Shown piece after piece: positions 19,114-61,178 of a stretch of DNA of 64,000 bases. The stretch lies in the NCBI RefSeq assembly GCF_003018255.1, contig NZ_CP027440.1; one strand, written 5' to 3'. Each line of letters begins with the position of its first letter. The stretch's first letter is position 1. A model generated the notes under the pieces. It was not told the DNA's origin. It saw nothing but the letters and a program-made list of their open reading frames with translations, and did not search any database. This DNA is from Escherichia coli (lineage in GTDB: Bacteria; Pseudomonadota; Gammaproteobacteria; Enterobacterales; Enterobacteriaceae). The position numbers and the translations under genes are program-made.

Positions 19114-19152
19114 AGTGACACCTTCTTTACGGAGTTTTTCTTTATCAGCCAA

Positions 19153-19623: not shown

Positions 19624-19908
19624 ATGCAACAAGAAGCGTTAGGAATGGTAGAAACCAAAGGCTTAACTGCCGCCATAGAGGCCGCAGACGCCATGGTGAA
19701 GTCGGCAAATGTTTTGCTGGTCGGCTACGAAAAAATAGGTTCCGGGCTGGTGACCGTCATCGTTCGTGGTGATGTCGGGGCGGTAAAAGCGGCAACAGAC
19801 GCAGGTGCCGCAGCTGCGCGTAACGTCGGCGAAGTAAAAGCCGTACATGTTATTCCCCGCCCACATACCGATGTCGAAAAAATCTTACCAAAGGGAATTA
19901 ACCCATGA
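19624..19908 (+). CDS. pduA: BMC shell protein PduA
   Basis: 94-aa BMC-H domain protein ([30 protein letters not shown]...). Confidence 0.92.
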
Positions 19909-20717: not shown

Positions 20718-20735
20718 ATTCTCTGAGGCAGATTT

Positions 20736-22400
20736 ATGAGATCGAAAAGATTTGAAGCACTGGCAAAACGCCCGGTCAACCAGGACGGTTTCGTTAAAGA
20801 GTGGATTGAAGAAGGCTTCATTGCGATGGAAAGCCCGAACGATCCTAAACCGTCAATCAAAATTGTTAACGGCGTCGTTACCGAACTGGATGGAAAACCC
20901 GCCAGCCAGTTTGACCTGATCGACCACTTTATCGCCCGCTACGGCATCAATCTCGCGCGCGCCGAAGAAGTCATCGCGATGGATTCGGTAAAACTTGCCA
21001 ATATGTTGTGCGATCCAAATGTCAAACGTAGCGATATCGTTCCCCTTACCACAGCAATGACGCCTGCAAAAATCGTCGAAGTGGTTTCGCAGATGAACGT
21101 GGTAGAGATGATGATGGCGATGCAGAAAATGCGCGCCCGTCGAACACCATCACAACAGGCTCACGTCACCAACGTTAAAGATAACCCGGTACAAATTGCC
21201 GCCGACGCAGCTGAAGGCGCATGGCGCGGGTTTGATGAACAGGAAACCACCGTTGCCGTTGCTCGCTATGCACCGTTCAACGCCATCGCCCTGCTGGTCG
21301 GCTCACAGGTGGGACGTCCGGGCGTCTTGACCCAGTGTTCACTGGAAGAAGCCACCGAACTGAAACTCGGTATGTTAGGCCACACCTGTTACGCCGAAAC
21401 AATTTCTGTCTATGGTACAGAACCTGTTTTCACCGATGGCGATGATACCCCGTGGTCAAAAGGGTTTCTCGCGTCATCCTATGCGTCTCGCGGCTTAAAA
21501 ATGCGCTTTACTTCCGGCTCCGGCTCTGAAGTACAGATGGGTTACGCGGAAGGCAAATCAATGCTTTATCTCGAGGCTCGATGCATTTACATCACCAAAG
21601 CCGCAGGCGTTCAGGGTCTGCAGAATGGTTCGGTAAGCTGTATCGGTGTTCCATCAGCTGTGCCATCAGGCATCCGCGCAGTATTAGCGGAAAACTTAAT
21701 TTGCTCATCGCTGGATCTGGAATGCGCCTCCAGTAATGACCAGACCTTTACCCACTCGGATATGCGCCGTACCGCACGTTTCCTGATGCAATTTCTGCCA
21801 GGTACCGACTTTATCTCTTCCGGTTTTTCCGCTGTGCCGAACTACGACAACATGTTTGCTGGTTCAAACGAAGATGCTGAAGACTTCGATGATTACAACG
21901 TCATTCAGCGTGACCTGAAGGTTGATGGCGGCCTGCGACCAGTACGCGAAGAAGATGTTATCGCTATCCGCAATAAAGCCGCTCGCGCTTTACAGGCTGT
22001 CTTTGCCGGTATGGGACTACCGCCTATTACCGATGAAGAAGTCGAAGCGGCAACCTATGCCCACGGTTCAAAAGATATGCCTGAGCGCAATATTGTAGAA
22101 GACATCAAGTTCGCCCAGGAGATTATCAATAAAAACCGGAACAGCCTGGAAGTGGTGAAAGCCCTGGCGCAAGGCGGTTTTACCGATGTCGCCCAGGACA
22201 TGCTCAACATGCAAAAAGCAAAACTGACCGGCGATTATCTCCATACCTCAGCCATCATCGTCGATGACGGACAAGTGCTCTCTGCGGTCAATGACGTCAA
22301 TGATTACGCCGGACCGGCTACAGGTTACCGCCTGCAAGGGGAACGCTGGGAAGAGATCAAAAATATTCCCGGTGCACTTGATCCCAACGAAATTGACTAA
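20736..22400 (+). CDS. pduC: Propanediol dehydratase large subunit
   Basis: 554 aa, B12-dependent diol dehydratase alpha subunit. Confidence 0.92.
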   Translation: MRSKRFEALAKRPVNQDGFVKEWIEEGFIAMESPNDPKPSIKIVNGVVTELDGKPASQFDLIDHFIARYGINLARAEEVIAMDSVKLANMLCDPNVKRSDIVPLTTAMTPAKIVEVVSQMNVVEMMMAMQKMRARRTPSQQAHVTNVKDNPVQIAADAAEGAWRGFDEQETTVAVARYAPFNAIALLVGSQVGRPGVLTQCSLEEATELKLGMLGHTCYAETISVYGTEPVFTDGDDTPWSKGFLASSYASRGLKMRFTSGSGSEVQMGYAEGKSMLYLEARCIYITKAAGVQGLQNGSVSCIGVPSAVPSGIRAVLAENLICSSLDLECASSNDQTFTHSDMRRTARFLMQFLPGTDFISSGFSAVPNYDNMFAGSNEDAEDFDDYNVIQRDLKVDGGLRPVREEDVIAIRNKAARALQAVFAGMGLPPITDEEVEAATYAHGSKDMPERNIVEDIKFAQEIINKNRNSLEVVKALAQGGFTDVAQDMLNMQKAKLTGDYLHTSAIIVDDGQVLSAVNDVNDYAGPATGYRLQGERWEEIKNIPGALDPNEID

Positions 22401-22409
22401 GGGTGAGAA

Positions 22410-23078
22410 ATGGAAATTAACGAAAAATTACTGCGTCAGATTATCGAAGACGTGCTGGCAGAAATGCAAACCAGCGACAAGCCCGTTTCATTTCGCGCAC
22501 CTGTCTCTGCAACTGCCTCTTCCGCGCCAGATACCGGAAATTTTCTGACCGAAATTGGCGAAGCCCAACAAGGCACTCAGCAAGATGAAGTCATTATTGC
22601 TGTAGGCCCGGCGTTCGGCCTGGCGCAAACCGTCAATATCATCGGTATTCCGCATAAAAACATTTTGCGCGAAGTGATTGCCGGTATCGAAGAAGAAGGC
22701 ATTAAAGCCCGTGTGATTCGCTGCTTTAAATCGTCCGATGTCGCATTCGTAGCAGTCGAAGGCGATCGTCTTAGTGGTTCAGGTATTGCTATCGGTATTC
22801 AGTCGAAAGGCACAACGGTTATCCACCAGCAGGGACTTCCTCCCTTGTCTAACCTGGAACTTTTCCCACAAGCGCCTTTGTTGACGCTGGATACTTATCG
22901 TCAGATTGGCAAAAACGCCGCGCGTTATGCGAAGCGCGAGTCTCCACAACCGGTGCCGACCCTCAACGATCAAATGGCGCGGCCGAAATACCAGGCCAAA
23001 TCTGCCATTTTGCATATTAAAGAGACGAAGTACGTGGTCACTGGCAAAAAACCGCAAGAACTGCGCGTGACGTTTTAA
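22410..23078 (+). CDS. pduD: Propanediol dehydratase medium subunit
   Basis: 222 aa; position after pduC. Confidence 0.9.
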
Positions 23079-23092
23079 CAAAGGAAACCTTC

Positions 23093-23611
23093 ATGAATAC
23101 CGATGCAATTGAGTCGATGGTCAGGGACGTGTTGAACCGCATGAACAGTTTACAGGATGCAGCTCCTGTTTCTGCGGTCCCCAGCGAGTCAATACAGAGC
23201 GCCAAAGTGACGGATTACCCGCTGGCAAATAAACATCCGGAATGGGTTAAAACAGCAACCAATAAAACGCTCGACGATTTCACTCTGGAAAATGTGCTCA
23301 GCGATAACGTCACCGCCCAGGATATGCGCATTACCCCTGAAACATTGCGTATTCAGGCTGCGATTGCCAGAGATGCTGGTCGCGATCGCCTGGCGATGAA
23401 TTTTGAACGCGCCGCTGAGCTTACCTCAGTACCGGATGATCGCATCCTCGAAATCTACAATGCGTTACGCCCTTATCGTTCGACTAAGCAAGAGCTTATT
23501 GCCATTGCTGACGATCTTGAACGGCGTTATCAGGCCAAAATTTGTGCTGCATTTGTCCGTGAAGCTGCGGAACTTTATGTCGAGCGCAAAAAACTGAAAG
23601 GCGACGATTAA
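23093..23611 (+). CDS. pduE: Propanediol dehydratase small subunit
   Basis: 172 aa; position and size. Confidence 0.9.
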   Translation: MNTDAIESMVRDVLNRMNSLQDAAPVSAVPSESIQSAKVTDYPLANKHPEWVKTATNKTLDDFTLENVLSDNVTAQDMRITPETLRIQAAIARDAGRDRLAMNFERAAELTSVPDDRILEIYNALRPYRSTKQELIAIADDLERRYQAKICAAFVREAAELYVERKKLKGDD

Positions 23612-23620
23612 GGACGAACT

Positions 23621-25453
23621 ATGCGATATATAGCAGGCATTGATATCGGCAACTCATCAACAGAGATTGCGCTGGCAACGCTCAGTGCAACTGGAGAGTT
23701 GTCGTTCTTGAGTAGCGCCCTGGCGGAAACCACCGGAATTAAAGGTACGTTGCGTAACGTCCATGGTATTCAGGAGGCGCTCGCACAGGCAACGAAAAAA
23801 GTCGGCATCAATGTTAGCGATATTTCGCTTATTCGTATCAACGAAGCAACTCCGGTCATTGGTGATGTGGCGATGGAAACCATCACTGAAACCATCATCA
23901 CCGAATCAACCATGATCGGTCACAACCCGAAAACTCCGGGCGGAGTTGGGCTGGGCGTAGGGCTCACCATCACTCCGCAAGAGTTATTAACACGCCCGGC
24001 GGACACACCTTACATCCTGGTGGTGTCATCGGCATTTGATTTTGCCGATATCGCAACGATGATAAACGCCTCCGTACGAGCCGGATATCAGCTGACTGGC
24101 GTTATTCTGCAACGCGACGATGGCGTACTGGTCAATAACCGCCTGGAAATTCCTCTCCCTATTGTGGATGAAGTCCTCTACATCGATCGTATTCCGCTCG
24201 GCATGCTGGCTGCAATTGAAGTTGCCGTTCCCGGGAAAGTTATCGAAACCCTGTCTAACCCGTATGGGATTGCCACCGTTTTCGCCCTCAATGCTGAAGA
24301 GACTAAAAATATTGTTCCTGTCGCGCGGGCGCTAATCGGCAACCGTTCAGCAGTGGTAGTGAAAACGCCTTCTGGCGACGTTAAAGCCCGTTCGATACCC
24401 GCCGGAAATATCGAACTGCTTTCTGCCGGGCGCACAACGCGGGTTGATGTAGCTGCTGGTGCCGATGCCATTATGAAAGCGGTCGGTGAGTGCCCAAAAC
24501 TGGAAAACGTGACGGGAGAACCTGGCTCCAACATCGGCGGAATGCTGGAACATGTTCGCCAGACCATGGCTGAACTGACCAACAAACCCAGCAACGAAAT
24601 TTTTATTCAGGATTTGCTGGCGATAGATACCTCTGTCCCCGTCAACGTAACCGGTGGTCTGGCAGGTGAATTTTCACTGGAACAGGCTGTGGGTATTGCC
24701 TCTATGGTGAAATCCGACCGTCTGCAAATGGCGATGATCGCCAGTGAAATTAAGCAAAAACTGCATGTTGATGTTCAGGTCGGAGGCGCAGAAGCAGAAG
24801 CCGCCATTCAGGGGGCCTTGACTACCCCTGGAACCACACGTCCACTGGCAATTCTGGACTTAGGTGCAGGCTCTACCGATGCCTCCATCATCAATCAGAA
24901 AGGGGAAATAGTTGCCACTCACCTTGCGGGAGCGGGCGACATGGTAACGATGATTATCGCTCGTGAGCTGGGCTTAAATGATCGTTATCTCGCAGAAGAA
25001 ATCAAAAAGTACCCGTTGGCAAAAGTAGAAAGCCTGTTCCACTTACGCCATGAAGATGGCAGCGTTCAGTTCTTCCCTACTCCGCTGTCCCCTCATGTAT
25101 TTGCCCGCGTTTGTGTGGTGAAACCTGACGAACTGGTGCCTATTCTCGGTGATTTGACGCTGGAAAAAGTACGTGCTGTCCGTCGTAGTGCGAAAGAGCG
25201 TGTCTTCGTAACTAATGCCCTGCGCGCGCTACGTCAGGTAAGCCCTGCCGGAAATATTCGCGACATTCCGTTCGTCGTTCTGGTGGGTGGTTCTTCGCTG
25301 GATTTCGAAGTACCGCAATTGGTCACCGACGCGCTGGCACATTATCGACTGGTCGCCGGGCGGGGGAATATCCGTGGTAGCGAAGGTCCGCGCAATGCGG
25401 TAGCTACTGGGCTCCTCATCGCCTGGCACAAGGGGGCGATTCATGGAAAGTAA
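23621..25453 (+). CDS. pduG: Diol dehydratase reactivase large subunit
   Basis: 610 aa, ATPase-like reactivase. Confidence 0.9.
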   Translation: MRYIAGIDIGNSSTEIALATLSATGELSFLSSALAETTGIKGTLRNVHGIQEALAQATKKVGINVSDISLIRINEATPVIGDVAMETITETIITESTMIGHNPKTPGGVGLGVGLTITPQELLTRPADTPYILVVSSAFDFADIATMINASVRAGYQLTGVILQRDDGVLVNNRLEIPLPIVDEVLYIDRIPLGMLAAIEVAVPGKVIETLSNPYGIATVFALNAEETKNIVPVARALIGNRSAVVVKTPSGDVKARSIPAGNIELLSAGRTTRVDVAAGADAIMKAVGECPKLENVTGEPGSNIGGMLEHVRQTMAELTNKPSNEIFIQDLLAIDTSVPVNVTGGLAGEFSLEQAVGIASMVKSDRLQMAMIASEIKQKLHVDVQVGGAEAEAAIQGALTTPGTTRPLAILDLGAGSTDASIINQKGEIVATHLAGAGDMVTMIIARELGLNDRYLAEEIKKYPLAKVESLFHLRHEDGSVQFFPTPLSPHVFARVCVVKPDELVPILGDLTLEKVRAVRRSAKERVFVTNALRALRQVSPAGNIRDIPFVVLVGGSSLDFEVPQLVTDALAHYRLVAGRGNIRGSEGPRNAVATGLLIAWHKGAIHGK

Positions 25454-25793
25454 AGAGCGTGCACCAGCCATCGTTGTCATGGAGATCGGTGACTGTATCA
25501 CTACATGGGATGAAGTGCTTCTTGGCATTGAAGAGGAAGGTATTCCCTTTCGCATTCAACACATTCCGTCAGGTGAAGTTATCGATAGCGCCCGGCTGGC
25601 TGCTCGTCAATCTCCCCTGTTGGTTGGCATTGCCTGCGACCAGGAAAAACTGATTGTGCATTACAAAAACTTACCGGCATCAGCGCCACTGTTTACGCTG
25701 ATGTATCAACAAGATAACCATGCCCGGCGCAGCATTGGCTCTAACGCTGCCCGCCTGGTAAAAGGGATTCCCTTCCGGGAACTCAACTCATAA
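25443..25793 (+). CDS. pduH: Diol dehydratase reactivase small subunit
   Basis: 116 aa; overlaps the pduG stop. Confidence 0.88.
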
Positions 25794-25812
25794 TCCACAG
25801 GAGAAATGCAGT

Positions 25813-26088
25813 ATGAACAACGCACTAGGACTGGTTGAAACAAAAGGGTTAGTTGGCGCAATTGAAGCTGCAGATGCCATGGTTAAATCCGCCAACGTGC
25901 AACTGGTTGGCTATGAAAAGATTGGTTCGGGTCTGATTACGGTGATGGTCCGCGGTGATGTTGGTGCAGTAAAGGCCGCCGTTGATGCAGGAAGCGCTGC
26001 GGCAAGCGCAGTTGGCGAAGTGAAATCCTGCCATGTCATCCCGCGCCCACACAGTGATGTTGAGGCTATTTTACCTAAATCGGCATAA
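25813..26088 (+). CDS. pduJ: BMC shell protein PduJ
   Basis: 91-aa BMC-H protein, near-identical core to PduA. Confidence 0.92.
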
Positions 26089-26111
26089 CCCCATTTGCTA
26101 AGGAGCACAGC

Positions 26112-26534
26112 GTGAAGCAATCACTGGGATTACTTGAAGTCAGTGGTCTGGCACTCGCCATCAGTTGCGCAGATGCTATGGCAAAAGCCGCGTCCATCAC
26201 GCTGGTTGGCCTTGAGAAGACCAATGGCTCAGGCTGGACGCTCATCAAAATCACCGGTGACGTCGCCTCGGTTAATGCGGCGATCGCGACGGGAGCCAGT
26301 TTCGCCGGACAGCGAAATGGCCTCGTCGCACACAAAGTGATTGCCCGTCCGGGAGACGGCATTCTGCCCCACACAACTGAAGCATTGACTGTGACGGTTG
26401 AAACAAGCGAAACACCAGCAACAACCGTCATCTCAGAGATTATCAGTTGTAATTTGTGTCTTGACCCGGCATGTCAGCGGCAAAAAGGTGAGCCCCGCTC
26501 ACTTTGCCTGCACGCCAATAAGCGAGGGGAGTAA
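26112..26534 (+). CDS. pduK: BMC shell protein PduK
   Basis: 140 aa, GTG start, BMC domain plus Cys-containing C-terminal tail. Confidence 0.85.
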   Translation: MKQSLGLLEVSGLALAISCADAMAKAASITLVGLEKTNGSGWTLIKITGDVASVNAAIATGASFAGQRNGLVAHKVIARPGDGILPHTTEALTVTVETSETPATTVISEIISCNLCLDPACQRQKGEPRSLCLHANKRGE

Positions 26535-26536
26535 CA

Positions 26537-27169
26537 GTGGATAAACAAACCTTGCAGGAAACAGTGAGCCAGATTCTGGATGAGATGCGCGAGCGCCCTA
26601 TCCCTCTGGGTGTTTCCAGTCGTCATATTCATCTTTCAACAGCGGATTATTTGCGTCTTTTTCCTGAACAACCGATTAGCGAGAAAAAGCCGTTAATGCA
26701 ACCTGGCCAATTCGCTGCTGAACAGGTTGTTACGCTGGAGGGACCAAAAGGCAAATTACACAACGTTCGCTTGTTGGGGCCGCTACGCAATGCAAGCCAG
26801 GTGGAAATTTCCCGGACGGACGCCAGAACGTTAGGGATCACCGCCCCGCTACGCATGTCAGGCGATCTCAGCGGCACTCCGGGGATTCGTTTGATAAGCC
26901 CATTTGCGGAACTGGAGATCACATCTGGCGTCATTGTCGCGCAACGGCATATTCATATGTCTCCGCTGGATGCCCTGATTTATGGCGTTACGCATGGCGA
27001 TAAAGTGGCGGTTGCCATTGAAGGTGATGAGCGAGGACTGATATTCGAAAACGTCACTGTTCGCGTCTCTCCGGATATGCGTCTTGAAATGCATATTGAT
27101 ACCGATGAAGCCAACGCCGCAGGGGCTGATAGCCCTGACGTTTTTGCCACACTGGTGTCAGTGACATGA
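26537..27169 (+). CDS. pduL: Phosphate propanoyltransferase
   Basis: 210 aa. Confidence 0.88.
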   Translation: MDKQTLQETVSQILDEMRERPIPLGVSSRHIHLSTADYLRLFPEQPISEKKPLMQPGQFAAEQVVTLEGPKGKLHNVRLLGPLRNASQVEISRTDARTLGITAPLRMSGDLSGTPGIRLISPFAELEITSGVIVAQRHIHMSPLDALIYGVTHGDKVAVAIEGDERGLIFENVTVRVSPDMRLEMHIDTDEANAAGADSPDVFATLVSVT

Positions 27170-27657
27170 ATAACATGCTGATGCAACGTATTGTTGACGA
27201 AGTGGTTTTTCGCCTTAAACAACGTGCGGGAAAAACACTCGTGCTGACTGTTTTTCAACTGCGAGACGCCAGCGTTCAAGAGAGCGTTCATCAGTATGCG
27301 TCATTACAAATCCGATATGTCGATCTGCCGCTGCTGCGACAACTTGCGGAGAACGAAACGTCAGATCGAGCAGCAATCCAGATACACGAAGCGTTAGCCT
27401 GGGGAATGCACATTCAATTGTCGTTGCAGCGTCATTTCCTGAACGCCATTGAATTGAAGACTCTCGCCCGTCTACCGCTAAGCTGGTGCGACGAACAAGG
27501 GCAACCGATCTACCTACATCATGATCGACTTTTAAGTTATGTCGATATCGCACAGTTAAGCTCGGGAATATTGGTGTTACAGCGGAAATGTTGTGTGACC
27601 GCACTGGCTCGTGAAGCGGCAATTACCCGAAATATTCAGTTAATCAGGCAGGAGTAA
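27166..27657 (+). CDS. pduM: Microcompartment protein PduM
   Basis: 163 aa; position. Confidence 0.85.
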   Translation: MNNMLMQRIVDEVVFRLKQRAGKTLVLTVFQLRDASVQESVHQYASLQIRYVDLPLLRQLAENETSDRAAIQIHEALAWGMHIQLSLQRHFLNAIELKTLARLPLSWCDEQGQPIYLHHDRLLSYVDIAQLSSGILVLQRKCCVTALAREAAITRNIQLIRQE

Positions 27658-27660
27658 CCT

Positions 27661-27936
27661 ATGCATCTGGCTCGAGTCACTGGCGCGGTAGTATCCACGC
27701 AAAAATCACCTTCTCTGATCGGGAAAAAACTGCTGCTGGTTCGCCAGGTCAGTGCTGACGGCGAACTGCCTCTCACGCCATTAACCGGCGACGAAGTTGC
27801 CGTTGATTCCGTCGGCGCAGGCGTTGGTGAGTTGGTACTCCTCAGCAGTGGTTCCAGCGCCAGACATGTGTTTTCCGGCCCTAACGAAGCCATCGACCTG
27901 GCAGTGGTCGGCATTGTCGATACGCTTTCGCGCTAA
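27661..27936 (+). CDS. pduN: BMC vertex (pentamer) protein PduN
   Basis: 91 aa, EutN/CcmL-type ([15 protein letters not shown]...). Confidence 0.9.
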
Positions 27937-27947
27937 GGAGCTGAAAG

Positions 27948-28955
27948 ATGGCAATTTATACCCGAACAGGTGATTCAGGAAGTACGTCTTTATTTACCGG
28001 ACAGCGCGTCAGCAAAACTCATCTACGTGTCGAAACCTATGGCACGCTGGATGAACTGAACGCGACACTCAGTCTGTGTTATTGCGCCACCGCCATCGAA
28101 AGCCATCGCATCTTACTGGAAGCCATTCAACAACAGATATTTTGGTTTTGCGCCGAACTCGCCAGTGAAAGCGAACAGCCGTCAGCGCAGCAGCGTTACA
28201 TCGGTACGGAAGAAATTGCCGCGCTGGAAAACGCGATCGATAGCGCAATGAACGCCGCCCCCCCGGTTCACAGCTTCATTCTGCCTGGTCGATGTGAAGC
28301 TGCAAGCCGCATGCATTTCGCCCGCACGGTGGCTCGACGGGCTGAAAGACGTCTGGTTGAACTGACAACAGAAACCACCGTCCGGAATGTTTTGCTGCAC
28401 TATATCAACCGACTTTCCGATTGCCTGTATGCCCTCGCCCGCGTGGAAGACAACGTTGCTCATCAAAACCTGATGATTCAGGAAATCACAAAACGTTATC
28501 ACGAAGCCAACCACACACCAGCATTGAAGGAACGCACAATGCCGCTCACTTTTCAGGATCTTCACCAGCTCATTCGTAGTGCGGCAATGCGCGCAGATGA
28601 ACTGCATATTCCCGTTGTCATCAGCATTGTCGATGCCAACGGAACAGAAAGTGTTACCTGGCGGATGCCTGATGCCCTGTTGGTCAGCAGTGAACTGGCA
28701 CCGAAAAAAGCCTGGACCGCCGTGGCGATGAAAACGGCAACCCACAAACTTGCTGATACCGTGCAACCCGGCGCGCCGCTTTACGGGCTCGAAAGCCATA
28801 TGCAAGGCAAAGTCGTCACTTTTGGTGGCGGCTTCCCCCTCTGGCGTGACGGAAAATTGCTTGGCGGGCTTGGCATCAGCGGCGGTAGCGTTGAACAAGA
28901 CATGGATATTGCCCAAAGCGCAATGGCGGCAATTAACGTGGGAGTAAACCAATGA
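27948..28955 (+). CDS. pduO: Corrinoid adenosyltransferase PduO
   Basis: 335 aa; PduO-type ATP:cob(I)alamin adenosyltransferase N-domain. Confidence 0.9.
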   Translation: MAIYTRTGDSGSTSLFTGQRVSKTHLRVETYGTLDELNATLSLCYCATAIESHRILLEAIQQQIFWFCAELASESEQPSAQQRYIGTEEIAALENAIDSAMNAAPPVHSFILPGRCEAASRMHFARTVARRAERRLVELTTETTVRNVLLHYINRLSDCLYALARVEDNVAHQNLMIQEITKRYHEANHTPALKERTMPLTFQDLHQLIRSAAMRADELHIPVVISIVDANGTESVTWRMPDALLVSSELAPKKAWTAVAMKTATHKLADTVQPGAPLYGLESHMQGKVVTFGGGFPLWRDGKLLGGLGISGGSVEQDMDIAQSAMAAINVGVNQ

Positions 28956-30337
28956 ATAACTCTGAATTAGAAACACTGATCCGCAATATTCTGCGTGAGC
29001 AGCTTGTCCCCGCTACGCAACGAGCGCAAAGAAACGCTATTTTCCAGACTGTTGATGAAGCGGTCTGCGCAGCACACCAGGCCTTTTTACGCTTTCAACA
29101 GTGCCCGCTTAAAACCCGTAGCGCCATTATCAGCGCCATTCGCGAAGAATTAATGCCCCGCCTTACCGAACTGGCAGAAGAAAGCGCCAAAGAAACGGGG
29201 ATGGGAAATAAAGAAGATAAGTACCTAAAAAACAAAGCGGCACTCGATAACACGCCAGGAATTGAAGATTTAACCACCACTGCACTAACCGGTGATGGTG
29301 GCATGGTTTTGTTTGAATACTCCCCGTTTGGGGTGATTGGCTCGGTCACGCCAAGCACCAATCCCACGGAAACCATCATTAACAACAGCATCAGCATGCT
29401 GGCAGCAGGTAATAGCGTCTACTTCAGTCCACACCCGGGAGCCAAATACGTTTCGTTAAAACTGATTACCACAATCGAAGACATCGCGTTTCGCTGTAGT
29501 GGCATTCACAACCTGATCGTTACCGTATCTGAACCAACCTTTGCCGCAACCGAACAAATGATGGCGCACCCTAAAATCAGCGTTCTGGCGATTACCGGTG
29601 GCCCGGGGATCGTCGCCATGGGAATGAAAAGTGGCAAGAAAGTGATTGGTGCCGGTGCGGGTAACCCACCCTGCATTGTCGATGAAACGGCGGATATTGT
29701 GAAAGCCGCCGAAGATATCATCAACGGCGCTTCATTTGATTACAACCTGCCGTGTATCGCTGAAAAAAGCCTGATTGTCGTAGCATCAGTGGCAGAGTAT
29801 TTAATTCAGCAGATGCAAAGTTTTGGCGCGCTTCTTCTTAACTATGAGCAAACGGAGAAATTGCGTGCAATTTGCCTGCCAGACGGTAGCGCCAACAAAA
29901 AACTGGTTGGGAAAAGCCCATCAGCCTTGCTGGAAGCAGCGGGCCTCCCTTTGCCCGCAAAAGCGCCGCGCCTACTGATTGCTGTTGTTGACGCCGATGA
30001 TAGTTGGGTTACTTGTGAACAACTGATGCCAATGCTGCCCATTGTGAAGGTCAACGATTTTGACAGCGCTCTCGCCCTGGCGTTGAAAGTGGAAGACGGC
30101 TTGCACCACACGGCAATTATGCACTCGCAGAACGTCTCACGACTCAACCTTGCCGCGCGCGTTATGCAAACCTCAATCTTTGTCAAAAACGGCCCCTCCT
30201 GGGCGGGTATTGGCGTCGGCGGCGAAGGCTTTACGACCTTTACCATTGCAACACCGACTGGAGAGGGTACAACGTCAGCACGGACTTTTGCCCGCTCACG
30301 ACGCTGCGTGTTAACCAGCGGCTTTTCCATTCGCTAG
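28952..30337 (+). CDS. pduP: CoA-acylating propionaldehyde dehydrogenase
   Basis: 461-aa aldehyde dehydrogenase-family protein. Confidence 0.9.
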   Translation: MNNSELETLIRNILREQLVPATQRAQRNAIFQTVDEAVCAAHQAFLRFQQCPLKTRSAIISAIREELMPRLTELAEESAKETGMGNKEDKYLKNKAALDNTPGIEDLTTTALTGDGGMVLFEYSPFGVIGSVTPSTNPTETIINNSISMLAAGNSVYFSPHPGAKYVSLKLITTIEDIAFRCSGIHNLIVTVSEPTFAATEQMMAHPKISVLAITGGPGIVAMGMKSGKKVIGAGAGNPPCIVDETADIVKAAEDIINGASFDYNLPCIAEKSLIVVASVAEYLIQQMQSFGALLLNYEQTEKLRAICLPDGSANKKLVGKSPSALLEAAGLPLPAKAPRLLIAVVDADDSWVTCEQLMPMLPIVKVNDFDSALALALKVEDGLHHTAIMHSQNVSRLNLAARVMQTSIFVKNGPSWAGIGVGGEGFTTFTIATPTGEGTTSARTFARSRRCVLTSGFSIR

Positions 30338-30347
30338 AGAAACGGAA

Positions 30348-31460
30348 ATGAAAACTTTTTCACTGCAGACGCGTTTATACAGCGGAACGGGAAGTCTCAA
30401 CATACTGAACCGTTTCACGAATAGGCACATCTGGATTATTTGCGACGTCTTTCTGGCACACTCACCACTCATTGACACGTTGCATCAGGCGCTGCCCGAC
30501 AGTAATCGTCTCAGTATTTTTAGCGAAATAACGCCCGACCCAACTATCCAGACCGTGGTGAAAGGCATTGCGCAAATGCAGACTTTACGCCCGGATGTGG
30601 TTATCGGTTTTGGCGGCGGTTCTGCCCTGGACGCTGCAAAAGCGATTGTCTGGTTTGGTCGCCAGTGTGGCATTGAAATTGAAACCTGCGTAGCCATTCC
30701 TACCACCAGCGGTACCGGTTCCGAAGTGACCAGTGCTTGTGTCATCAGCGATCCTGAGAAAGGGATTAAATATCCCCTTTTCGATAATGCACTTTATCCG
30801 GATATCGCGATCCTTGATCCATCTTTGGTCGTCAGCGTGCCACCGGCGATAACGGCCAATACCGGGATGGATGTTTTAACCCATGCGCTTGAAGCTTATG
30901 TTTCTCCCCGCGCCAGCGACTTCACGGATGCACTGGTCGAAAAAGCCGTGCAAATTGTTTTTCAATACCTGCCCACTGCAGTGAAGAAAGGCGATTGTCT
31001 TTCCACCCGTGGCAAAATGCATAATGCATCGACGCTTGCAGGAATAGCCTTTAGCCAGGCCGGACTCGGTTTAAACCATGCACTTGCTCATCAACTCGGC
31101 GGACAGTTTCATCTGCCGCACGGCCTGGCGAATGCGCTCCTGCTCACGGCGGTAATCCGCTTTAATGCTGGCGATCCGCGCGCAGCCAAACGCTACGCCC
31201 GGCTGGCGAAAACGTGCCATTTATGCCCGGACAACGCCAATGACACCGCCAGCCTGAATGCACTTATTCAACATATTGAACAGCTTAAAACAACCTGTAC
31301 GCTGCCAACACTTGCCAATGCGCTGAAAGAAAAAAAAGCAGAATGGTCAATACGCATACCAGATATGGTTCAGGCAGCGCTGGCGGATGCAACGTTGCGT
31401 ACCAACCCGCGTGCGGCTGATGCCTCCGCGATTGCAGAACTGCTCGAGGAGTTGTTATGA
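30348..31460 (+). CDS. pduQ: 1-propanol dehydrogenase (iron-containing ADH)
   Basis: 370-aa Fe-ADH family protein. Confidence 0.9.
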   Translation: MKTFSLQTRLYSGTGSLNILNRFTNRHIWIICDVFLAHSPLIDTLHQALPDSNRLSIFSEITPDPTIQTVVKGIAQMQTLRPDVVIGFGGGSALDAAKAIVWFGRQCGIEIETCVAIPTTSGTGSEVTSACVISDPEKGIKYPLFDNALYPDIAILDPSLVVSVPPAITANTGMDVLTHALEAYVSPRASDFTDALVEKAVQIVFQYLPTAVKKGDCLSTRGKMHNASTLAGIAFSQAGLGLNHALAHQLGGQFHLPHGLANALLLTAVIRFNAGDPRAAKRYARLAKTCHLCPDNANDTASLNALIQHIEQLKTTCTLPTLANALKEKKAEWSIRIPDMVQAALADATLRTNPRAADASAIAELLEELL

Positions 31461-32800
31461 ACGTCGAGTTAACCTCCTGCGATGACCAGACCATCCGCGA
31501 GCGAGTACAAGCAGCAGGTGTCGTGGGTGCTGGCGGCGCAGGTTTTCCAACCCATATTAAGCTACAAGCGCGTGTTGACACGTTCCTGGTGAATGCGGCG
31601 GAATGCGAACCAATGTTGAAAGTGGATCAACAGTTAATGGTGCAGCAAGCCAGCCGCCTGCTTCGCGGTGTTCACTATGCTATGAAAGCCACCGGGGCCA
31701 GTAGCGGAATCATCGCGCTGAAAGAAAAATATCAACGGGCAATAAACGCACTCACACCCCTATTACCACCGGATATCCGCCTGCATATTTTGCCCGATGT
31801 TTACCCCGCAGGAGACGAAGTGCTGACCATCTGGATGGCAACTGGTCGCCGCGTCCCACCCGCGGCATTACCCGTTAGCGTCGGTGTGGTGGTCAATAAT
31901 GTTCAAACCGTACTTAATATTGCCAGAGCCGTCGAGCAACAGTATCCAGTGACGCGCCGCACACTCACTATTAATGGTGCAGTGGCGAAACCAATAACGG
32001 TAACCGTCCCCATCGGCATGTCTTTACGTGAAGTCCTGGCGCTGGCGGGCGGCGCAACAGTAGATGCGCCTGGTTTTATCAATGGCGGGCCGATGATGGG
32101 AAGTTTGATCACATCGCTCGACACCCCCGTCAGCAAAACCACTGGCGGCTTGCTGGTTTTACCCAACTCTCATTCACTGATCCAACTTCGAATGCAGAAT
32201 GACCGCAGCGTACTTACCGTCGCGAAAACTGTTTGTGAGCAATGCCGCTTGTGTACCGATCTCTGCCCACGTCATTTAGTCGGTCACGAACTGGCCCCCC
32301 ATTTATTAGTACGTGCGGTTAACTACCAACAGCTCGCTACGCCACAACTGTTACTGACGGCGCTCACCTGTTCGGAGTGCAACGTCTGCGCCAGCGTCGC
32401 CTGTCCGGTAGGAATTTCACCAATGCGCATAAACCGCCTGCTTAAGCAGGAATTACGCGCACAAAATCTCCGCTACGAAGGTGCCTTAAATCCTGCTGAT
32501 CCCATGGCAAATTATCGACTGATTCCCGTAAAACGGCTGGTAACCAGACTGGGCCTAATCCCGTGGTATCAGGATGCGCCATTGTCTGAACAGGTGCCTC
32601 AGACCGAAAAAGTGACGTTATTGTTACGCCAGCACATCGGTGCCAGCGCAATTGCGTGTGTACAAAAAGGCGATCGCGTCGTTCATGGGCAATGTGTAGG
32701 TCAAATTCCACACGGCACATTAGGTGCCCCGATTCATGCCAGTATTGATGGCATGGTCAGCGATGTGACAGAAAACGCAATTACGCTTGTGAGAGGTTAA
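31457..32800 (+). CDS. pduS: Cobalamin reductase PduS (Fe-S flavoprotein)
   Basis: 447 aa with two Cys clusters ([25 protein letters not shown]). Confidence 0.9.
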
Positions 32801-32802
32801 CC

Positions 32803-33357
32803 ATGTCGAAAGCGGTAGGTATTTTAGAACTTAGCAGTATCGCGAAAGGGATGGAAACCGGCGACGCCATGCTGAAAAGCGCCAACGTTGAGTTACTGGT
32901 CAGCAAAACGCTATGCCCCGGAAAATTTCTGCTGATGCTCGGTGGCGATGTGGGCGCGGTGCAACAGGCCATCAACAGCGGTGCTTCCGTTGCTGGTGAA
33001 ATGCTGGTCGACAGTCTTGTCCTGCCGAATATTCATCCCAGTCTCCTTTCTGCAATCAGCGGACTGAACCATGTTGAGCAGCACCGGGCTGTCGGCGTAG
33101 TCGAAACCTGGAGTGTCGCTGCCTGCATTGACGCTGCCGATTGTGCTGTCAAAGCTGCGAATGTCATTCTCGTTCGCGTACATATGGCTTTTGGCATTGG
33201 CGGAAAATGCTACATGGTGGTTGCTGGCGATATTTCAGATGTTAATAACGCGGTCTCTGTCGCCAGCGAGCGTGCGGGAGAAAAAGGTTTGTTGGTCTAT
33301 CGGTCGGTGATTGCCCGTCCACATGAAGCCATGTGGCGTCAGATGGTGGAGGGATAA
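32803..33357 (+). CDS. pduT: BMC shell protein PduT (tandem BMC)
   Basis: 184 aa. Confidence 0.9.
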
Positions 33358-33707
33358 TGACAACTCAGCACACAACTGAACGGATGATTCAGGAATATGT
33401 CCCTGGTAAGCAGGTCACGCTGGCACATGTCATCGCCAATCCAGGGAAGGATCTGTTTAAGAAATTGGGTTTACCAGACACCGTTTCTGCTATTGGCATT
33501 CTGACGATTACCCCCAGCGAAGCATCTATCATCGCATGCGATATCGCCACAAAATCAGGCGCTGTAGAGATCGGTTTTCTTGATCGTTTTACCGGTGCCG
33601 TAGTGCTGACTGGTGATGTTTCTGCTATTGAATATGCACTTAGCCAGGTTACCCGTACGCTGGGTGAAATGATGCGCTTTACCGCCTGCCCCATTACGCG
33701 GACCTGA
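33357..33707 (+). CDS. pduU: BMC shell protein PduU
   Basis: 116 aa from [18 protein letters not shown]; start overlaps the pduT stop (taATG). Confidence 0.88.
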
Positions 33708-33711
33708 CGTT

Positions 33712-34155
33712 ATGCAACGTATGATGCTTATCGGCCCCAGCCAGTGCGGAAAAACGTCACTCACGCAATGTCTGCGTGGCGAAAATATCCATTATCAGAA
33801 AACGCAGGCAATCGTCTGGTCCCCGACCACCATTGATACACCAGGCGAATACCTCGAAAACCGCAGCCTTTACAGTGCATTGTTGGTCAGTGCCTGCGAA
33901 GCAGACATTATCGCACTGGTACTTAATGCGGACGCACCGTGGTCACCTTTTTCGCCAGGCTTTACCTCGTCAATGAATCGCCCGGTCATTGGAGTAGTAA
34001 CCAAAGCAGATTTAGCCAGTATGGAACAAATATCTTTGGTGAAATGTTGGTTACGGGAAGCTGGAGCGCACAACGTGTTAGTAACCAGTGCGGTTAATAA
34101 CAATGGAGTTACAGAACTTTTTGCCTTGCTGCATACAGAAGAAGGCTGTCGCTAA
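33712..34155 (+). CDS. pduV: Small GTPase-like protein PduV/EutP family
   Basis: 147 aa with P-loop [10 protein letters not shown]. Confidence 0.88.
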
Positions 34156-37979: not shown

Positions 37980-39407
37980 ATGATGAATGACGGTAAGCAA
38001 CAATCTACCTTTTTGTTTCACGATTACGAAACCTTTGGCACGCACCCCGCGTTAGATCGCCCTGCACAGTTCGCAGCCATTCGCACCGATAGCAAATTCA
38101 ATGTCATCGGCGAACCCGAAGTCTTTTACTGCAAGCCCGCGGATGACTATTTACCCCAGCCTGGAGCAGTATTAATTACCGGTATTACCCCGCAGGAGGC
38201 ACGGGCGAAAGGAGAAAACGAAGCCGCGTTTGCCGCCCGTATTCACTCGCTTTTTACCGTACCGAAGACCTGTATTCTGGGCTACAACAATGTGCGTTTC
38301 GACGACGAAGTCACACGCAACGTTTTTTATCGTAATTTCTACGATCCTTACGCCTGGAGCTGGCAGCATGATAACTCGCGCTGGGATTTACTGGATGTTA
38401 TGCGTGCCTGTTATGCCCTGCGCCCGGAAGGAATAAACTGGCCTGAAAATGATGACGGTCTACCGAGCTTTCGCCTTGAGCATTTAACCAAAGCGAATGG
38501 TATTGAACATAGCAACGCCCACGATGCGATGGCTGATGTGTACGCCACTATTGCGATGGCGAAACTGGTAAAAACGCGTCAGCCACGCCTGTTTGATTAT
38601 CTCTTTACCCATCGTAATAAACACAAACTGATGGCGTTGATTGATGTTCCGCAGATGAAACCCTTGGTTCACGTTTCCGGAATGTTTGGGGCATGGCGCG
38701 GCAATACCAGCTGGGTGGCACCGCTGGCGTGGCATCCTGAAAATCGCAATGCCGTAATTATGGTGGATTTGGCAGGAGACATTTCGCCATTACTGGAGCT
38801 GGATAGCGACACATTGCGCGAGCGTTTATATACCGCAAAAGCCGATCTTGGCGATAACGCCGCCGTTCCGGTTAAGCTGGTGCATATCAATAAATGTCCG
38901 GTACTGGCCCAGGCGAATACGCTACGCCCGGAAGATGCCGACCGACTGGGAATTAATCGTCAGCATTGCCTCGATAACCTAAAAATTCTGCGTGAAAATC
39001 CGCAAGTGCGTGAAAAAGTGGTGGCGATATTCGCGGAAGCCGAACCGTTTACGCCTTCAGATAACGTGGATGCACAGCTTTATAATGGCTTTTTCAGTGA
39101 CGCCGATCGTGCAGCAATGAAAATTGTGCTGGAAACCGAGCCGCGTAATTTACCGGCACTGGATATCACTTTTGTTGATAAACGAATTGAAAAACTGTTG
39201 TTCAATTATCGAGCGCGCAACTTCCCGGGGACGCTGGATTATGCCGAGCAGCAACGCTGGCTGGAGCACCGCCGCCAGGTCTTCACGCCAGAGTTTTTGC
39301 AGGGCTACGCTGATGAATTGCAGATGCTGGCACAACAGTATGCTGATGACAAAGAGAAAGTGGCGCTGTTAAAAGCGCTTTGGCAGTACGCGGAAGAGAT
39401 CGTCTGA
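37980..39407 (+). CDS. sbcB: Exodeoxyribonuclease I
   Basis: 475 aa from MMNDGKQQSTFLFHDYETFG (DEDDh exonuclease motif); the listed ORF has a 24-codon upstream extension. Confidence 0.9.
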   Translation: MMNDGKQQSTFLFHDYETFGTHPALDRPAQFAAIRTDSKFNVIGEPEVFYCKPADDYLPQPGAVLITGITPQEARAKGENEAAFAARIHSLFTVPKTCILGYNNVRFDDEVTRNVFYRNFYDPYAWSWQHDNSRWDLLDVMRACYALRPEGINWPENDDGLPSFRLEHLTKANGIEHSNAHDAMADVYATIAMAKLVKTRQPRLFDYLFTHRNKHKLMALIDVPQMKPLVHVSGMFGAWRGNTSWVAPLAWHPENRNAVIMVDLAGDISPLLELDSDTLRERLYTAKADLGDNAAVPVKLVHINKCPVLAQANTLRPEDADRLGINRQHCLDNLKILRENPQVREKVVAIFAEAEPFTPSDNVDAQLYNGFFSDADRAAMKIVLETEPRNLPALDITFVDKRIEKLLFNYRARNFPGTLDYAEQQRWLEHRRQVFTPEFLQGYADELQMLAQQYADDKEKVALLKALWQYAEEIV

Positions 39408-39415
39408 AACAAAAA

Positions 39416-39442
39416 AGCCGGAGCGACAAACTCCGGCTTTTT
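39416..39442. terminator. Bidirectional Rho-independent terminator (sbcB / plaP)
   Basis: Hairpin agccggag-cgacaaa-ctccggct flanked by A and T runs in the 73-bp gap between convergent genes. Confidence 0.7.
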
Positions 39443-39480
39443 GAGATTTACCGGATGATTATGTCATCCGGTTTGTAAGA

Positions 39481-40839
39481 TTACGCTACGTCTTCGTACT
39501 GCGGAACCGGGTTACGGAAACTCTTGGTTACGCAAGCCAGGTAAATCAGACCGATAGCAGCCCAGATCAGACCCAGAACCATTGAGCTTTCTTCCAGGTT
39601 AACCCACAGCGCACCAACGGTCAGCGCACCACACATCGGCAGGAACAGATACTGGAAGTGATCTTTCAGCGTCTTGTTACGCTTCTCACGGATCCAGAAC
39701 TGCGAGATGACCGACAGGTTAACGAAGGTGAACGCCACCAACGCACCAAAGTTAATCAGCGCCGTAGCCATTACCAGGTCGAAGTTGATTGCCAGCAGGG
39801 CAATCGCGCCAACCAGGATGATGTTCATCGCCGGAGTACGCCATTTCGGGTGTACATAACCGAAGAAGCTTTTCGGGAACACGCCGTCACGACCCATTAC
39901 GTACATCAGACGCGCTACGCCTGCGTGCGCCGCCATACCGGACGCCAGTACGGTAATGGTGGAGAAGATCAGCGCGCCAACCTGGAACGCTTTACCCGCA
40001 ACGTACAGCATGATTTCAGGCTGTGACGCATCCGGATCTTTAAAGCGAGAGATATCCGGGAAGTACAGCTGCAGGAAGTAAGTTGCAAAGATGAAGATCA
40101 TGCCGCCGATCAGCGCGGTCAGGAAAATCGCACGCGGGATCACGCGCTCTGCATCTTTGGTTTCTTCCGACAGGTTGCTGATGCCGTCAAAACCGGTAAA
40201 GGAGAAGCACAGGATTGTCGCCCCGGTAATCATCGGGATAACATGCGCATCGCCAGACCAGAACGGACGAGTGCTCGCCAGCGTACCAGCGCCTTCACCT
40301 TCAAATACGCCATAAACAACCATGCCCAGAATCACCGCGATCAGCACTACCTGCAACACGACGATTACAGTGTTGAAGTTCGCTACGGATTTCAGACTAC
40401 GCAGGTTAAAGGCGGTCATAAAGGCCACCAGCGCCACCACAAACATCCACGATGGAATGGAAGGCACCAGAGCTTCAAAATAGATTTTCGCCAGCAGAAT
40501 GTTGATCATCGGCGCGAACAGATAGTCGAGCAGAGAAGACCAACCCACCATAAAGCCGACAGTCGGGCTAATGGATTTCTGGGCGTAAGTGTATGCAGAG
40601 CCAGCAGAAGGATAGCGGCGAACCAGCTTCCCGTAGCTCAGAGCCGTAAACAGGATCGCAATCAATGCGAACGCATAGGCTGTCGGCACATGACCATCCG
40701 TGAGGCCTGAAACGATACCAAAAGTATCAAACAGCGTCATCGGCTGCATATAGGCTAGACCCATCATTACAACCGGAACTAACGTAAGCGTTTTACGCAA
40801 TTCCACGCGAGAGGTGTTTGGAGTAACGTTATGCGACAT
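39481..40839 (-). CDS. plaP: Putrescine importer (APC family amino-acid/polyamine transporter)
   Basis: 452 aa from [31 protein letters not shown], 12-TM APC-family layout. Confidence 0.9.
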
Positions 40840-54706: not shown

Positions 54707-55723
54707 TCACTCAGAATATCCATTCGGATTTTTATTTTGCCATCTCCAAGCATCAGTAATCATATCCTCAAGTGTACGCTTTGCTTCCCAATGAAGCTCT
54801 TTAATAGCTAAATCTGGTTTTGACCAACATTCAGCGATATCTCCAAGCCTTCGCTCAGAAATAACATAAGGTATTTTTATTCCGGTTATTTTTTGAAAGG
54901 CATCAATAATCTCTTTTACTGAATATCCTTTACCTGTGCCTAGGTTATAATAACGTAACCCACCGTATATATTTTGTTTTTTTAGCGCTGCAATATGACC
55001 TTCCGCTAAGTCCATAACATGTATGTAATCTCTAACTCCGGTGCCATCAACCGTAGGATAATCCCCCCCATATATGGTCAACTTCTCAAGTTTCCCAACA
55101 GCAACCTGTGTTAAATAGGGAAAAAGGTTGCTTGGTACACCATTAGGATCCTCACCAATTAAACCAGAATAATGTGCGCCTACAGGATTAAAATATCTCA
55201 AGCAAGTTGCATTAAATTTAAATTCATAATTGGTTATATCTTCAAGCATTCTTTCAACAATATATTTTGTCGTCCCATATGGATTTGTTGTTCCTCCTGT
55301 ACTGCAATTTTCGTGCACCGGAATAGCTGTAGGATTGCCATATACTGTTGCGGATGAACTAAAAATAAAATTGTAAATTTTATTTTTTAACATCGAGTCA
55401 ATTAAATGCAAAGTTCCAATAACATTATTCTCATAATACTGAATGGGTTTTTTAATTGATTCCGAAACAGATTTTAGCGCAGCAAAATGAATAACAGCCT
55501 CGATATCATTATTTGCAAACACAGAATCAATCAAGTCAATGTTGCGTATATCTCCTTCATATATAATTATTTTCTTAGAAGTCAAATACTCCACTCTTTT
55601 TAAAGCAATCTTTGAAGAGTTACTAAAATTATCAATAACAATAACATCATAGTTATGATTTAAAAGTTGCAATACTGTATGTGAACCAATATATCCTGCC
55701 CCACCAGTCACGAGAACAGCCAT
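54707..55723 (-). CDS. UDP-hexose 4-epimerase (GalE/Gne family) of the O-antigen cluster
   Basis: 338-aa SDR protein with VTGGAGYIGSH and YxxxK; low-GC; next to gnd. Could be a UDP-GlcNAc/GalNAc epimerase. Confidence 0.8.
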   Translation of the reverse strand: MAVLVTGGAGYIGSHTVLQLLNHNYDVIVIDNFSNSSKIALKRVEYLTSKKIIIYEGDIRNIDLIDSVFANNDIEAVIHFAALKSVSESIKKPIQYYENNVIGTLHLIDSMLKNKIYNFIFSSSATVYGNPTAIPVHENCSTGGTTNPYGTTKYIVERMLEDITNYEFKFNATCLRYFNPVGAHYSGLIGEDPNGVPSNLFPYLTQVAVGKLEKLTIYGGDYPTVDGTGVRDYIHVMDLAEGHIAALKKQNIYGGLRYYNLGTGKGYSVKEIIDAFQKITGIKIPYVISERRLGDIAECWSKPDLAIKELHWEAKRTLEDMITDAWRWQNKNPNGYSE

Positions 55724-55756
55724 ACCCTCTCCTTTAAAAACATTTTTTATAAGAAA

Positions 55757-56734
55757 CTATCTGTTTTTTACTTGATACAAGAAATGATAAACTGGAAAGA
55801 ATTTTTTAATCAACAACAAGCGAAACGCATAATACATACCAAAAGCCTGTTCGCAATTCATTTTCTGCTCTATGTTTTTCGGCAAAACTATTTTATTTTT
55901 TTTACATAAAAGGAATATATAAATCAAAAAATCATTGTATCTTTTCTTAAGATAATACTTGACCAATCTATTCTTTGTTGTTTGTATAATACATCTATAG
56001 GTTTTTAATACTTCCAGATAACCAATTATATTGCGAGAGCTAATTTTACTTGTCATTATTGAGTTTTCCCTTACCCTTCGGTAAAAATAAATCTCATCGG
56101 TACAATAACACAACTTAGAATCTAAAATAATCCTAGGTAAGTACTCTTCATCCTCATGAACTATATTTTTAAAAAATGAATTTCGCATTAATAATTCAGT
56201 TCTAAATACATTAATGCAAACAGATGAAAAGTAAGAATTGGTTGAAAATAATCTTTCTAAAAAAACATCACCAGACTTACAAATTTGAAATTTAGTTCGT
56301 TTATATGAAGGAATTTTACCTGCCAAATTAGAAGGGAGCCCTAATATTGATCCTGAAAATGCTATAATGTCTAACTCTTTATAATTAGTCAATATTTCAT
56401 TAATATCCCTTATAAACATTGGACTCAAAGCATCATCAGAGTCAAAAAAATAGACGTATGGTGTGCTAACTTTTGTCAGACCATAATTCCTAGCACTGCT
56501 TAAACCACCATTTTCTTTAGAAAATATCTTATAATTATCCTTACCCTCTATTCTTTTTTTAAGGAGAGGTATCGAATCATCACTAGAACCATCATCCACG
56601 ATGATAACTGAATGTGGTTGCATAGACTGATTTATAATAGAATCTATAGCCTCAACAATATAATCTTGGACATTGTACACAGGCATAACAATTGATATTA
56701 ATTTGGAAATCTCATTTTCTTTTTGGCAAAGCAT
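55757..56734 (-). CDS. Glycosyltransferase family 2
   Basis: 325 aa with N-terminal GT-A motif ISIVMPVYN...VIIVDDGSSD; low GC. Confidence 0.8.
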   Translation of the reverse strand: MLCQKENEISKLISIVMPVYNVQDYIVEAIDSIINQSMQPHSVIIVDDGSSDDSIPLLKKRIEGKDNYKIFSKENGGLSSARNYGLTKVSTPYVYFFDSDDALSPMFIRDINEILTNYKELDIIAFSGSILGLPSNLAGKIPSYKRTKFQICKSGDVFLERLFSTNSYFSSVCINVFRTELLMRNSFFKNIVHEDEEYLPRIILDSKLCYCTDEIYFYRRVRENSIMTSKISSRNIIGYLEVLKTYRCIIQTTKNRLVKYYLKKRYNDFLIYIFLLCKKNKIVLPKNIEQKMNCEQAFGMYYAFRLLLIKKFFPVYHFLYQVKNR

Positions 56735-58145: not shown

Positions 58146-58152
58146 TTTATTA

Positions 58153-59049
58153 TTATCTCACTCTTTTTTTAAAATGGTTTTCATAAACTTTTTGCTTCAA
58201 ATATATAATGCCAGGGAACGCTCTTTTGAGTAGCAACTTAGTTGCAAATAATGTCCAGTATTGTTTTTTTGCTATAAAAGAAAATATAATTTTAATTTTT
58301 AAACATCTTAACATCATTAACCTAAACAGGTTATAATTCTTTGTATCATTGTACATTATATTCTTATATTTAAAATAATACTTCCGATATGCCACATAAT
58401 CTTTAATATTCTTGGTTATTCTAACACCTTCATGAGAAATATCCATATAGTAAGTATTAGCGTTTAACCTCCTGGCACTCCCATAAACTTGAATAAGTTT
58501 AGTCCAAACATCTTGATCTTGTAACCGTTTAAAATCAATAGAAAATCCTCCAACTGATAACAAACGCTCTCGCTCAACTAAAATCTGGTTACCAGCTTCA
58601 TTTTCCTTGAGTATACTTTGTAAATCAATGATACATTCTCTTTGAAATCGTGCATGATTATTTGTTCCAGTCACTATTATATAGTTATCGCAGATAAAGG
58701 AAAATTCCTTGTTATAATGATTAACCAGAATCTGTAACCTATCTTCTTTGAAATAATCATCATCATCCAACCCTGTAATGAAGAAACCTTTTGCATGCTT
58801 TAATCCTCTATTTCTAGAAAAATTAGCCCCCATATTTCTTGGGTTTTTCTTATATATAAAATTCTTAATATTTGGTGTTGCTACTTCTTGCAATTCTTTT
58901 ACAATCAAGTCAACTTCATAACTAGAGTTATCATCGACTACGATTAATTCTATTTTTGAATAAGTTTGATTAAATACTGATAATATTGCTCTGCGCAACA
59001 GCAAAGGGCGATTATAAGATGTTATAAGAACGCTTACTAATTTTTCCAT
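58153..59049 (-). CDS. Glycosyltransferase family 2
   Basis: GT-A motif VSVLITSYNRP...IVVDDNS; probable start MEKLVSV, with the listed ORF extended. Confidence 0.8.
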   Translation of the reverse strand: MEKLVSVLITSYNRPLLLRRAILSVFNQTYSKIELIVVDDNSSYEVDLIVKELQEVATPNIKNFIYKKNPRNMGANFSRNRGLKHAKGFFITGLDDDDYFKEDRLQILVNHYNKEFSFICDNYIIVTGTNNHARFQRECIIDLQSILKENEAGNQILVERERLLSVGGFSIDFKRLQDQDVWTKLIQVYGSARRLNANTYYMDISHEGVRITKNIKDYVAYRKYYFKYKNIMYNDTKNYNLFRLMMLRCLKIKIIFSFIAKKQYWTLFATKLLLKRAFPGIIYLKQKVYENHFKKRVR

Positions 59050-61177: not shown

Positions 61178-61178
61178 A

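Follow-up and report, generated by a model that had tools for sequence, protein, structure and literature searches.

In Escherichia coli K-12, the closest described counterpart of the locus analyzed here, sbcB on the plus strand is followed by three minus-strand genes, tsuB, tsuA and plaP, where tsuB and tsuA are the current names for yeeD and yeeE. The K-12-type spacer between the stop codons of sbcB and plaP is 1,520 bp long and holds both tsu genes; no flanking repeats, att-like sequences or mobility genes were found around the pair in K-12. Growth of K-12 on thiosulfate depends on both YeeE and YeeD only if the strain carries a cysPUWA deletion as well (PMC11073785).

Strains without the pair have already been noted in print. 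A literature search for any systematic account of how yeeE/yeeD absence is distributed over the phylogroups returned only Iguchi et al. 2011 (PMC3158064), in which yeeD and yeeE were missing between sbcB and yeeF in the B2 strains EC95-42 and PV57 and in strain PV01-185. The B2 strains without the genes were O157:H45 and O157:H39, the phylogroup A strain without them had taken up the region along with its O-antigen cluster, and an IS200-like element lay between sbcB and yeeF in PV57 (PMC3158064). The absence described there is the same as the one described below; it was made as a passing remark on five sequenced regions, with no frequency, outgroup comparison or terminator analysis (PMC3158064).

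This study analyzed a 64-kb stretch of E. coli DNA (the window) in which sbcB and plaP converge on a short spacer (Table 1). Our reading, to which we give a probability of about 80%, is that the window carries an old tsuAB-less sbcB-plaP allele that most likely arose by loss of tsuAB and in which one shared hairpin would serve as terminator. Annotation was based on E. coli JNE23-011 (record NZ_AP045067.1), to which the window is 100% identical. The flanking genes are arranged and oriented as in the K-12 locus, with nucleotide identities of 97.9% for sbcB and 99.0% for plaP; the encoded proteins are 99% (SbcB) and 100% (PlaP) identical in amino acid sequence to those of K-12. The stop codon of sbcB is TGA in the window (39405-39407), whereas it is TAA in K-12 and tsuAB-bearing E. 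coli alleles of sbcB end in ATT GTC TAA; plaP ends in TAA on the minus strand (39481-39483). The gene ends leave a gap of only 73 bp, exactly as an earlier sequence-only reading of this DNA had claimed.

Table 1. Coordinates of the sbcB-plaP junction and of other features in the 64-kb window
Feature	Position	Strand	Description
sbcB (exodeoxyribonuclease I)	37980-39407	+	Annotation of the identical record JNE23-011
sbcB-plaP convergent spacer, tsuAB-less allele	39408-39480		73 bp, against 1,520 bp in K-12
I1, putative bidirectional intrinsic terminator for sbcB and plaP	39412-39442		Perfect 12-bp inverted repeat
I2, ACCGGATGA-ttatg-TCATCCGGT	39450-39472		Perfect 9-bp inverted repeat
plaP (putrescine/proton symporter, formerly yeeF)	39481-40839	-	Annotation of the identical record
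Inverse-autotransporter pseudogene	626-1405		Adjoins the first tRNA-Asn gene
tRNA-Asn genes	237-312, 8397-8472, 10221-10296, 12630-12705		Four copies within 12.5 kb
cobU	15588-16132		Frameshifted
Cobalamin riboswitch	16922-17096
pdu (propanediol utilization microcompartment) cluster	17185-34155		Complete, with pocR and pduF
O-antigen cluster	about 55500-64000		Annotated as O146 family
wzy	57238-58416		In the O-antigen cluster
wzx	60778-62316		In the O-antigen cluster

Several features elsewhere in the window were recorded in passing. The pdu cluster adjoins cobUST and lies upstream of tmaR-yeeA-sbmC-dacD-sbcB, and the O-antigen cluster also includes a pyruvyl transferase gene and a nitroreductase-family gene.

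Relative to K-12, the window lacks 1,447 bp comprising tsuB, tsuA, the promoter region of tsuA and another hairpin, GC-rich and lacking T-tracts, that lies between sbcB and tsuB in K-12. In tblastn searches of the 64-kb window with the K-12 proteins as queries, neither tsuA (best E = 2.6) nor tsuB (best E = 0.26 over 13 aa) was found, nor was a TusA-like YeeD partner gene found adjoining the site, and no YeeE/YedE-family membrane protein gene is annotated there in the identical record. The sequence-only reading had placed a yeeE-yeeD pair at this site in K-12, which the K-12 gene order confirms, and its claim that the pair is missing here was borne out, with synteny compared across E. coli genomes; a different orientation of the pair at this site in most strains, which it had named as a possible objection, was not encountered. 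The same reading had called the junction clean and free of remnants. Within the window, no coding remnant was detected with TsuA or TsuB by tblastn, and the junction shows no excision scar in the form of direct repeats, att sites or an integrase or transposase.

Megablast homology between the window and K-12-type alleles ends exactly at both stop codons, and the sole recognizable spacer feature common to the two alleles is a homologous CCGGAG hairpin adjoining the plaP stop codon, which reads AAAAAAACCGGAGCC...GACTCCGGTTTATT in K-12 and AAAAAAGCCGGAGCG...ACTCCGGCTTTTT in the window. Compared with K-12, the window spacer has an additional 9-bp palindrome, and its T-tract facing sbcB is fuller; the spacer is not a subset of the tsuAB-bearing spacers. 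An origin by a simple cut from K-12 spacers was rejected, as alignment is limited to the core of the terminator plus about 10 nt upstream of it; it is conceivable that a deletion cut inside the TAA stop codon and regenerated a stop as TGA. Separately, strain HH45 was seen to carry a truncated tsuB and a tsuA fragment, with about 560 bp of scrambled C-rich sequence replacing tsuA (locus L087, 2720-3285). This may be an independent decay event or an assembly error, and HH45 was not used as a case of independent partial deletion.

The state of the site was compared across the loci of 80 other Enterobacteriaceae species, taken from among the matches listed in an SbcB genome scan, which do not include E. 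albertii, E. fergusonii, E. marmotae or Salmonella. Among these listed loci, the site is most often empty: sbcB and plaP abut at 45 of the 80, with spacers of 64-172 bp, tsuB-tsuA occupies the same site in the same orientation at 21, other inserts lie there at 8, and the remaining 6 were left unassigned. Both states occur within Citrobacter and within Kosakonia, and at least eight state changes are needed on the SbcB tree (82 loci). For the 20 tsuAB-bearing species loci compared, pairwise nucleotide distances of TsuA and SbcB are correlated (r = 0.84) with equal means (0.208 vs. 0.210), indicating that tsuAB co-diverged at the site, and this co-divergence favors ancient residence with repeated loss over repeated gain. 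Loss is thus the most likely direction of change: tsuAB would have resided at the site since before these enterobacterial genera split and would have been lost repeatedly.

The opposite history, in which the empty junction is ancestral, would have tsuAB entering between sbcB and the plaP terminator in an ancestor common to most E. coli, or spreading by recombination, so that the window has lost nothing. The preponderance of empty over tsuAB-bearing sites among the listed loci (45 against 21) and Fitch parsimony, which sets the root of the SbcB tree for these loci to 'absent', speak for it, as does the empty allele of E. whittamii. Additionally, the terminator adjoining plaP is intact in both states, as an upstream insertion would leave it, the E. 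coli empty spacer is not derivable from K-12 spacers by a simple cut, and in Salmonella LT2 sbcB presumably adjoins yeeF directly, judging by gene numbering. However, tsuAB sits at the identical site and in the identical orientation in about nine genera, its divergence matches that of sbcB as long vertical residence rather than repeated insertion would have it, and neither mobility genes nor direct repeats nor att-like sequences flank it. On balance, an ancestral empty junction is unlikely, if far from negligible.

Other cargo and other variation were also observed around the site. In Raoultella and Klebsiella, the sbcB-plaP interval holds a gene for a 700-aa EF-G-like GTPase and a divergent 103-aa ArsR-like ORF, and beyond this pair Klebsiella has a large ORF exceeding 1,000 aa; with such differing cargo, the junction is variable family-wide. 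The loci concerned are L027, L031, L032, L053, L055 and L066, where inserts of about 2.8-3.0 kb follow sbcB, together with L040, L043 and L061. The PlaP proteins (loci L006-L083) fall into two allele classes relative to K-12, one with 96-100% amino acid and 0.875-0.89 nucleotide identity and the other with 85-88% and 0.81-0.83, respectively; both classes occur within Citrobacter, Kluyvera and Enterobacter, and they follow neither the SbcB tree (r = 0.48) nor the tsuAB state.

Returning to loss as the preferred direction, its age in Escherichia can be gauged from E. whittamii, which has the same 73-bp spacer with about 5 differing positions (~93% identity). The flanks of the two species stand at interspecies divergence (~89% nucleotide identity for dacD and yeeY and 89-94% for sbcB), indicating that the allele is old and was not recently exchanged. 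Because E. whittamii has the allele too, the loss allele of Escherichia would be older than the diversification of B2; since then, it would have been passed on by descent and exchanged among lineages through homologous recombination, to which the his/O-antigen neighborhood is prone. Strain 21AR0303 has a window-like sbcB yet carries tsuAB, 98.1% identical to K-12. Its sbcB is of the window type up to nt 1398, and no more than the final two informative sites (nt 1398-1427, ATT GTC TAA) are of the tsuAB-allele type, which places the allele boundary at the very 3' end of sbcB; this mixture shows that recombination brings in or removes either allele on similar backgrounds. A separate case is CUWW06, labeled E. 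coli, whose sbcB-tsuAB-plaP-his segment is only ~87% identical to the window; a tyrosine recombinase gene and phage-like genes lie upstream of its sbcB, yeeY is absent, and the segment looks like imported foreign DNA.

Inverted-repeat detection in the spacer returned two perfect repeats, I1 and I2, the first flanked by an A-tract and a T-tract. This agrees with the bidirectional terminator hairpin and second palindrome of the sequence-only reading, with termination itself being putative. Compared with shuffled sequence, the whole spacer folds with z = -6.5 and -7.5 on the two strands, and in the tests of I1, I2 and the whole spacer none of the 200 shuffles folded as well. The arms of I1, AAAAAGCCGGAG and CTCCGGCTTTTT (39412-39423 and 39431-39442), enclose a 7-nt loop; a core stem of 7 bp, formed by GCCGGAG (39417-39423) and CTCCGGC (39431-39437), extends to 12 bp and is flanked by A6 on one side and T5 on the other. 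The RNA fold of I1 on the plus strand is -18.3 kcal/mol (z = -5.1 against shuffles), and a U-tract follows the stem on both strands, the plus strand reading UUUUUGAGAUUU and the minus strand UUUUUUGUUU. Between the two convergent genes, the core stem starts 9 nt past the sbcB stop codon and ends 43 nt before that of plaP. A consensus terminator scan did not list I1, likely because greedy extension of the stem into the A/T flanks leaves no T tail. I1 is a candidate for the class of bidirectional intrinsic terminators found between convergent genes: it is a single GC-rich hairpin, flanked by an A-tract and a T-tract, that sits between the stop codons of two convergent genes.

The hairpin was also compared across species. 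In both site states, and with few exceptions among the 80 listed species loci, a CCGGAG...CTCCGG hairpin with A6-8 before the stem adjoins the plaP stop codon, which marks it as the plaP terminator, and the A-tract on the plaP side amounts to ~7/8 bases in either state. The T-tract on the other side depends on the state: in raw species counts that do not factor in shared ancestry, the 8 nt after the stem on the plus strand contain a mean of 6.9 T at 43 empty sites (at least 7 T in 35 of 43) vs. 4.5 T at 22 tsuAB-bearing loci (at least 7 T in none). A fuller T-tract at empty sites is expected if the hairpin also terminates sbcB once the two genes abut. The E. coli empty allele has only 5/8 T after the stem, followed by GAGATTT, and is thereby weaker on the sbcB side than most empty-site species, which have 7-8/8 T. 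Overall, the I1 hairpin most likely terminates both the sbcB and the plaP transcripts; with the two genes abutting, this single hairpin, homologous to the plaP terminator of tsuAB-bearing genomes, would end both.

The second palindrome, I2, consists of the arms ACCGGATGA (39450-39458) and TCATCCGGT (39464-39472) separated by a 5-nt loop, 23 nt overall, with a fold of -14.1 kcal/mol (z = -6.3 against shuffles). Its position is in the 3' UTR of plaP, past the plaP stop codon and ahead of the terminator, and downstream of the point at which sbcB would terminate. One copy is present in the window, and in each of 1,214 genomes I2 occurs a single time, in every case at the sbcB-plaP site. A search of 39300-39600 against Rfam at E up to 10 gave no family for I2, all matches being at chance level and far below gathering scores. 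Its CCGGATG / CATCCGG arms resemble the outer stem of E. coli REP elements, and the resemblance to the REP consensus is limited to these outer arms. I2 was rejected as a REP element: it is single-copy, 23 nt long and perfect, whereas REP elements are imperfect, ~35-40 nt long and dispersed in many copies. The most economical reading is that I2 is a neutral REP-like remnant or a minor stabilizer of the mRNA 3' end.

A functional, allele-specific role for I2, as a stabilizer of the plaP mRNA 3' end, as part of an sRNA from the plaP 3' UTR or as a protein-binding site, might be suggested by its perfect 9-bp stem and low z-score, by the retention of at least 90% identity across the 1,214 genomes and by the full REP-like palindromes that Citrobacter and Enterobacter loci have at this position. 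A palindrome directly upstream of the terminator on the transcript is also the arrangement known from 3'-UTR sRNAs, and such an sRNA would be no more than a possibility here. However, the stem has partly decayed in E. whittamii, loci L085 and L086 lack its outer pair, no Rfam family matches it, and it is missing from tsuAB-bearing alleles that otherwise encode the same PlaP protein. Strong conservation within E. coli is expected anyway at such divergence, and a dedicated function for I2 is quite improbable.

Within E. coli, the survey covered 5,426 complete genomes. tsuAB DNA is present in 4,209 of them, 782 have the same contiguous empty junction as the window, and 433 have the empty junction with an IS200C element right after the sbcB TGA; together these three classes account for 5,424 genomes, exactly as many as have the locus at all, and about 22% of complete E. 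coli genomes lack tsuAB. A 38-nt segment around I2 occurs once per genome, at the same site and with at least 90% identity, in the 1,214 genomes mentioned above, indicating that all tsuAB-less E. coli share one spacer haplotype. The IS200C element of the 433 genomes is ~713 bp long, lies directly past the sbcB TGA (corresponding to 39407/39408 of the window, where no IS200C is present) and upstream of the shared terminator (2509-3221 in locus L003; also locus L091), and carries at the end adjoining sbcB its own hairpin followed by T5. The IS200-like element of PV57 matches this class (PMC3158064). Named carriers of the empty allele include EC958 (O25b:H4-ST131, with IS200C) and the uropathogen NU14; in terms of phylogroup, the allele occurs in the B2 strains checked, namely a few named strains and those of one paper (PMC3158064). 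It is a population-level allele, not a private deletion, and the gene-content polymorphism is common, old and already noted in print (PMC3158064).

The survey also bears on two explanations of a different kind. Relocation of tsuAB to another place in the genome, instead of loss, is very hard to uphold given that the classes are complementary (4,209 + 782 + 433 = 5,424), so that tsuAB has not moved elsewhere in these genomes; moreover, the median number of tsuAB places per genome is one, only a single copy in the entire collection lies on a plasmid, and no tsuA or tsuB was found by tblastn in the window. A recent deletion confined to this strain or its clone, or an artifact of assembly, might be imagined from the very clean junction and short spacer but is practically incompatible with an identical contiguous junction in 782 independent complete genomes, a spacer haplotype shared by 1,214 genomes and E. 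whittamii, and a spacer that is not a subset of the tsuAB-bearing ones.

A more far-reaching view would treat the junction as a family-wide toggle site at which TsuAB was dropped at least eight times in the sampled species and the plaP terminator was reshaped into a bidirectional one, with the loss allele, fixed in major extraintestinal-pathogenic lineages of E. coli (ST131 and NU14 being those observed), adaptive instead of neutral, for example through altered sulfur or thiosulfate handling in the host. We regard this as a speculative proposal with little chance of being right. In a smaller variant that may still be entertained, the allele-specific palindrome and terminator module would yield a stable RNA from the plaP 3' UTR.

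For the reading preferred here, an old allele that lost tsuAB, the expected phenotype is modest: only the TsuA/TsuB route of thiosulfate uptake would be lost, and CysPUWA would stay the main route. The locus provides a tidy example of a gene pair that was probably lost repeatedly at one site across the Enterobacteriaceae, and of a terminator whose T-tract tracks whether it serves one gene or two; the finding is an ordinary one, and neither example alters current understanding. For E. coli itself, about one in five sequenced strains, including EC958 (ST131) and NU14, lacks the TsuA/TsuB thiosulfate importer studied in K-12. Therefore, K-12 work on this pathway is not transferable to those strains, in which CysPUWA should supply thiosulfate.
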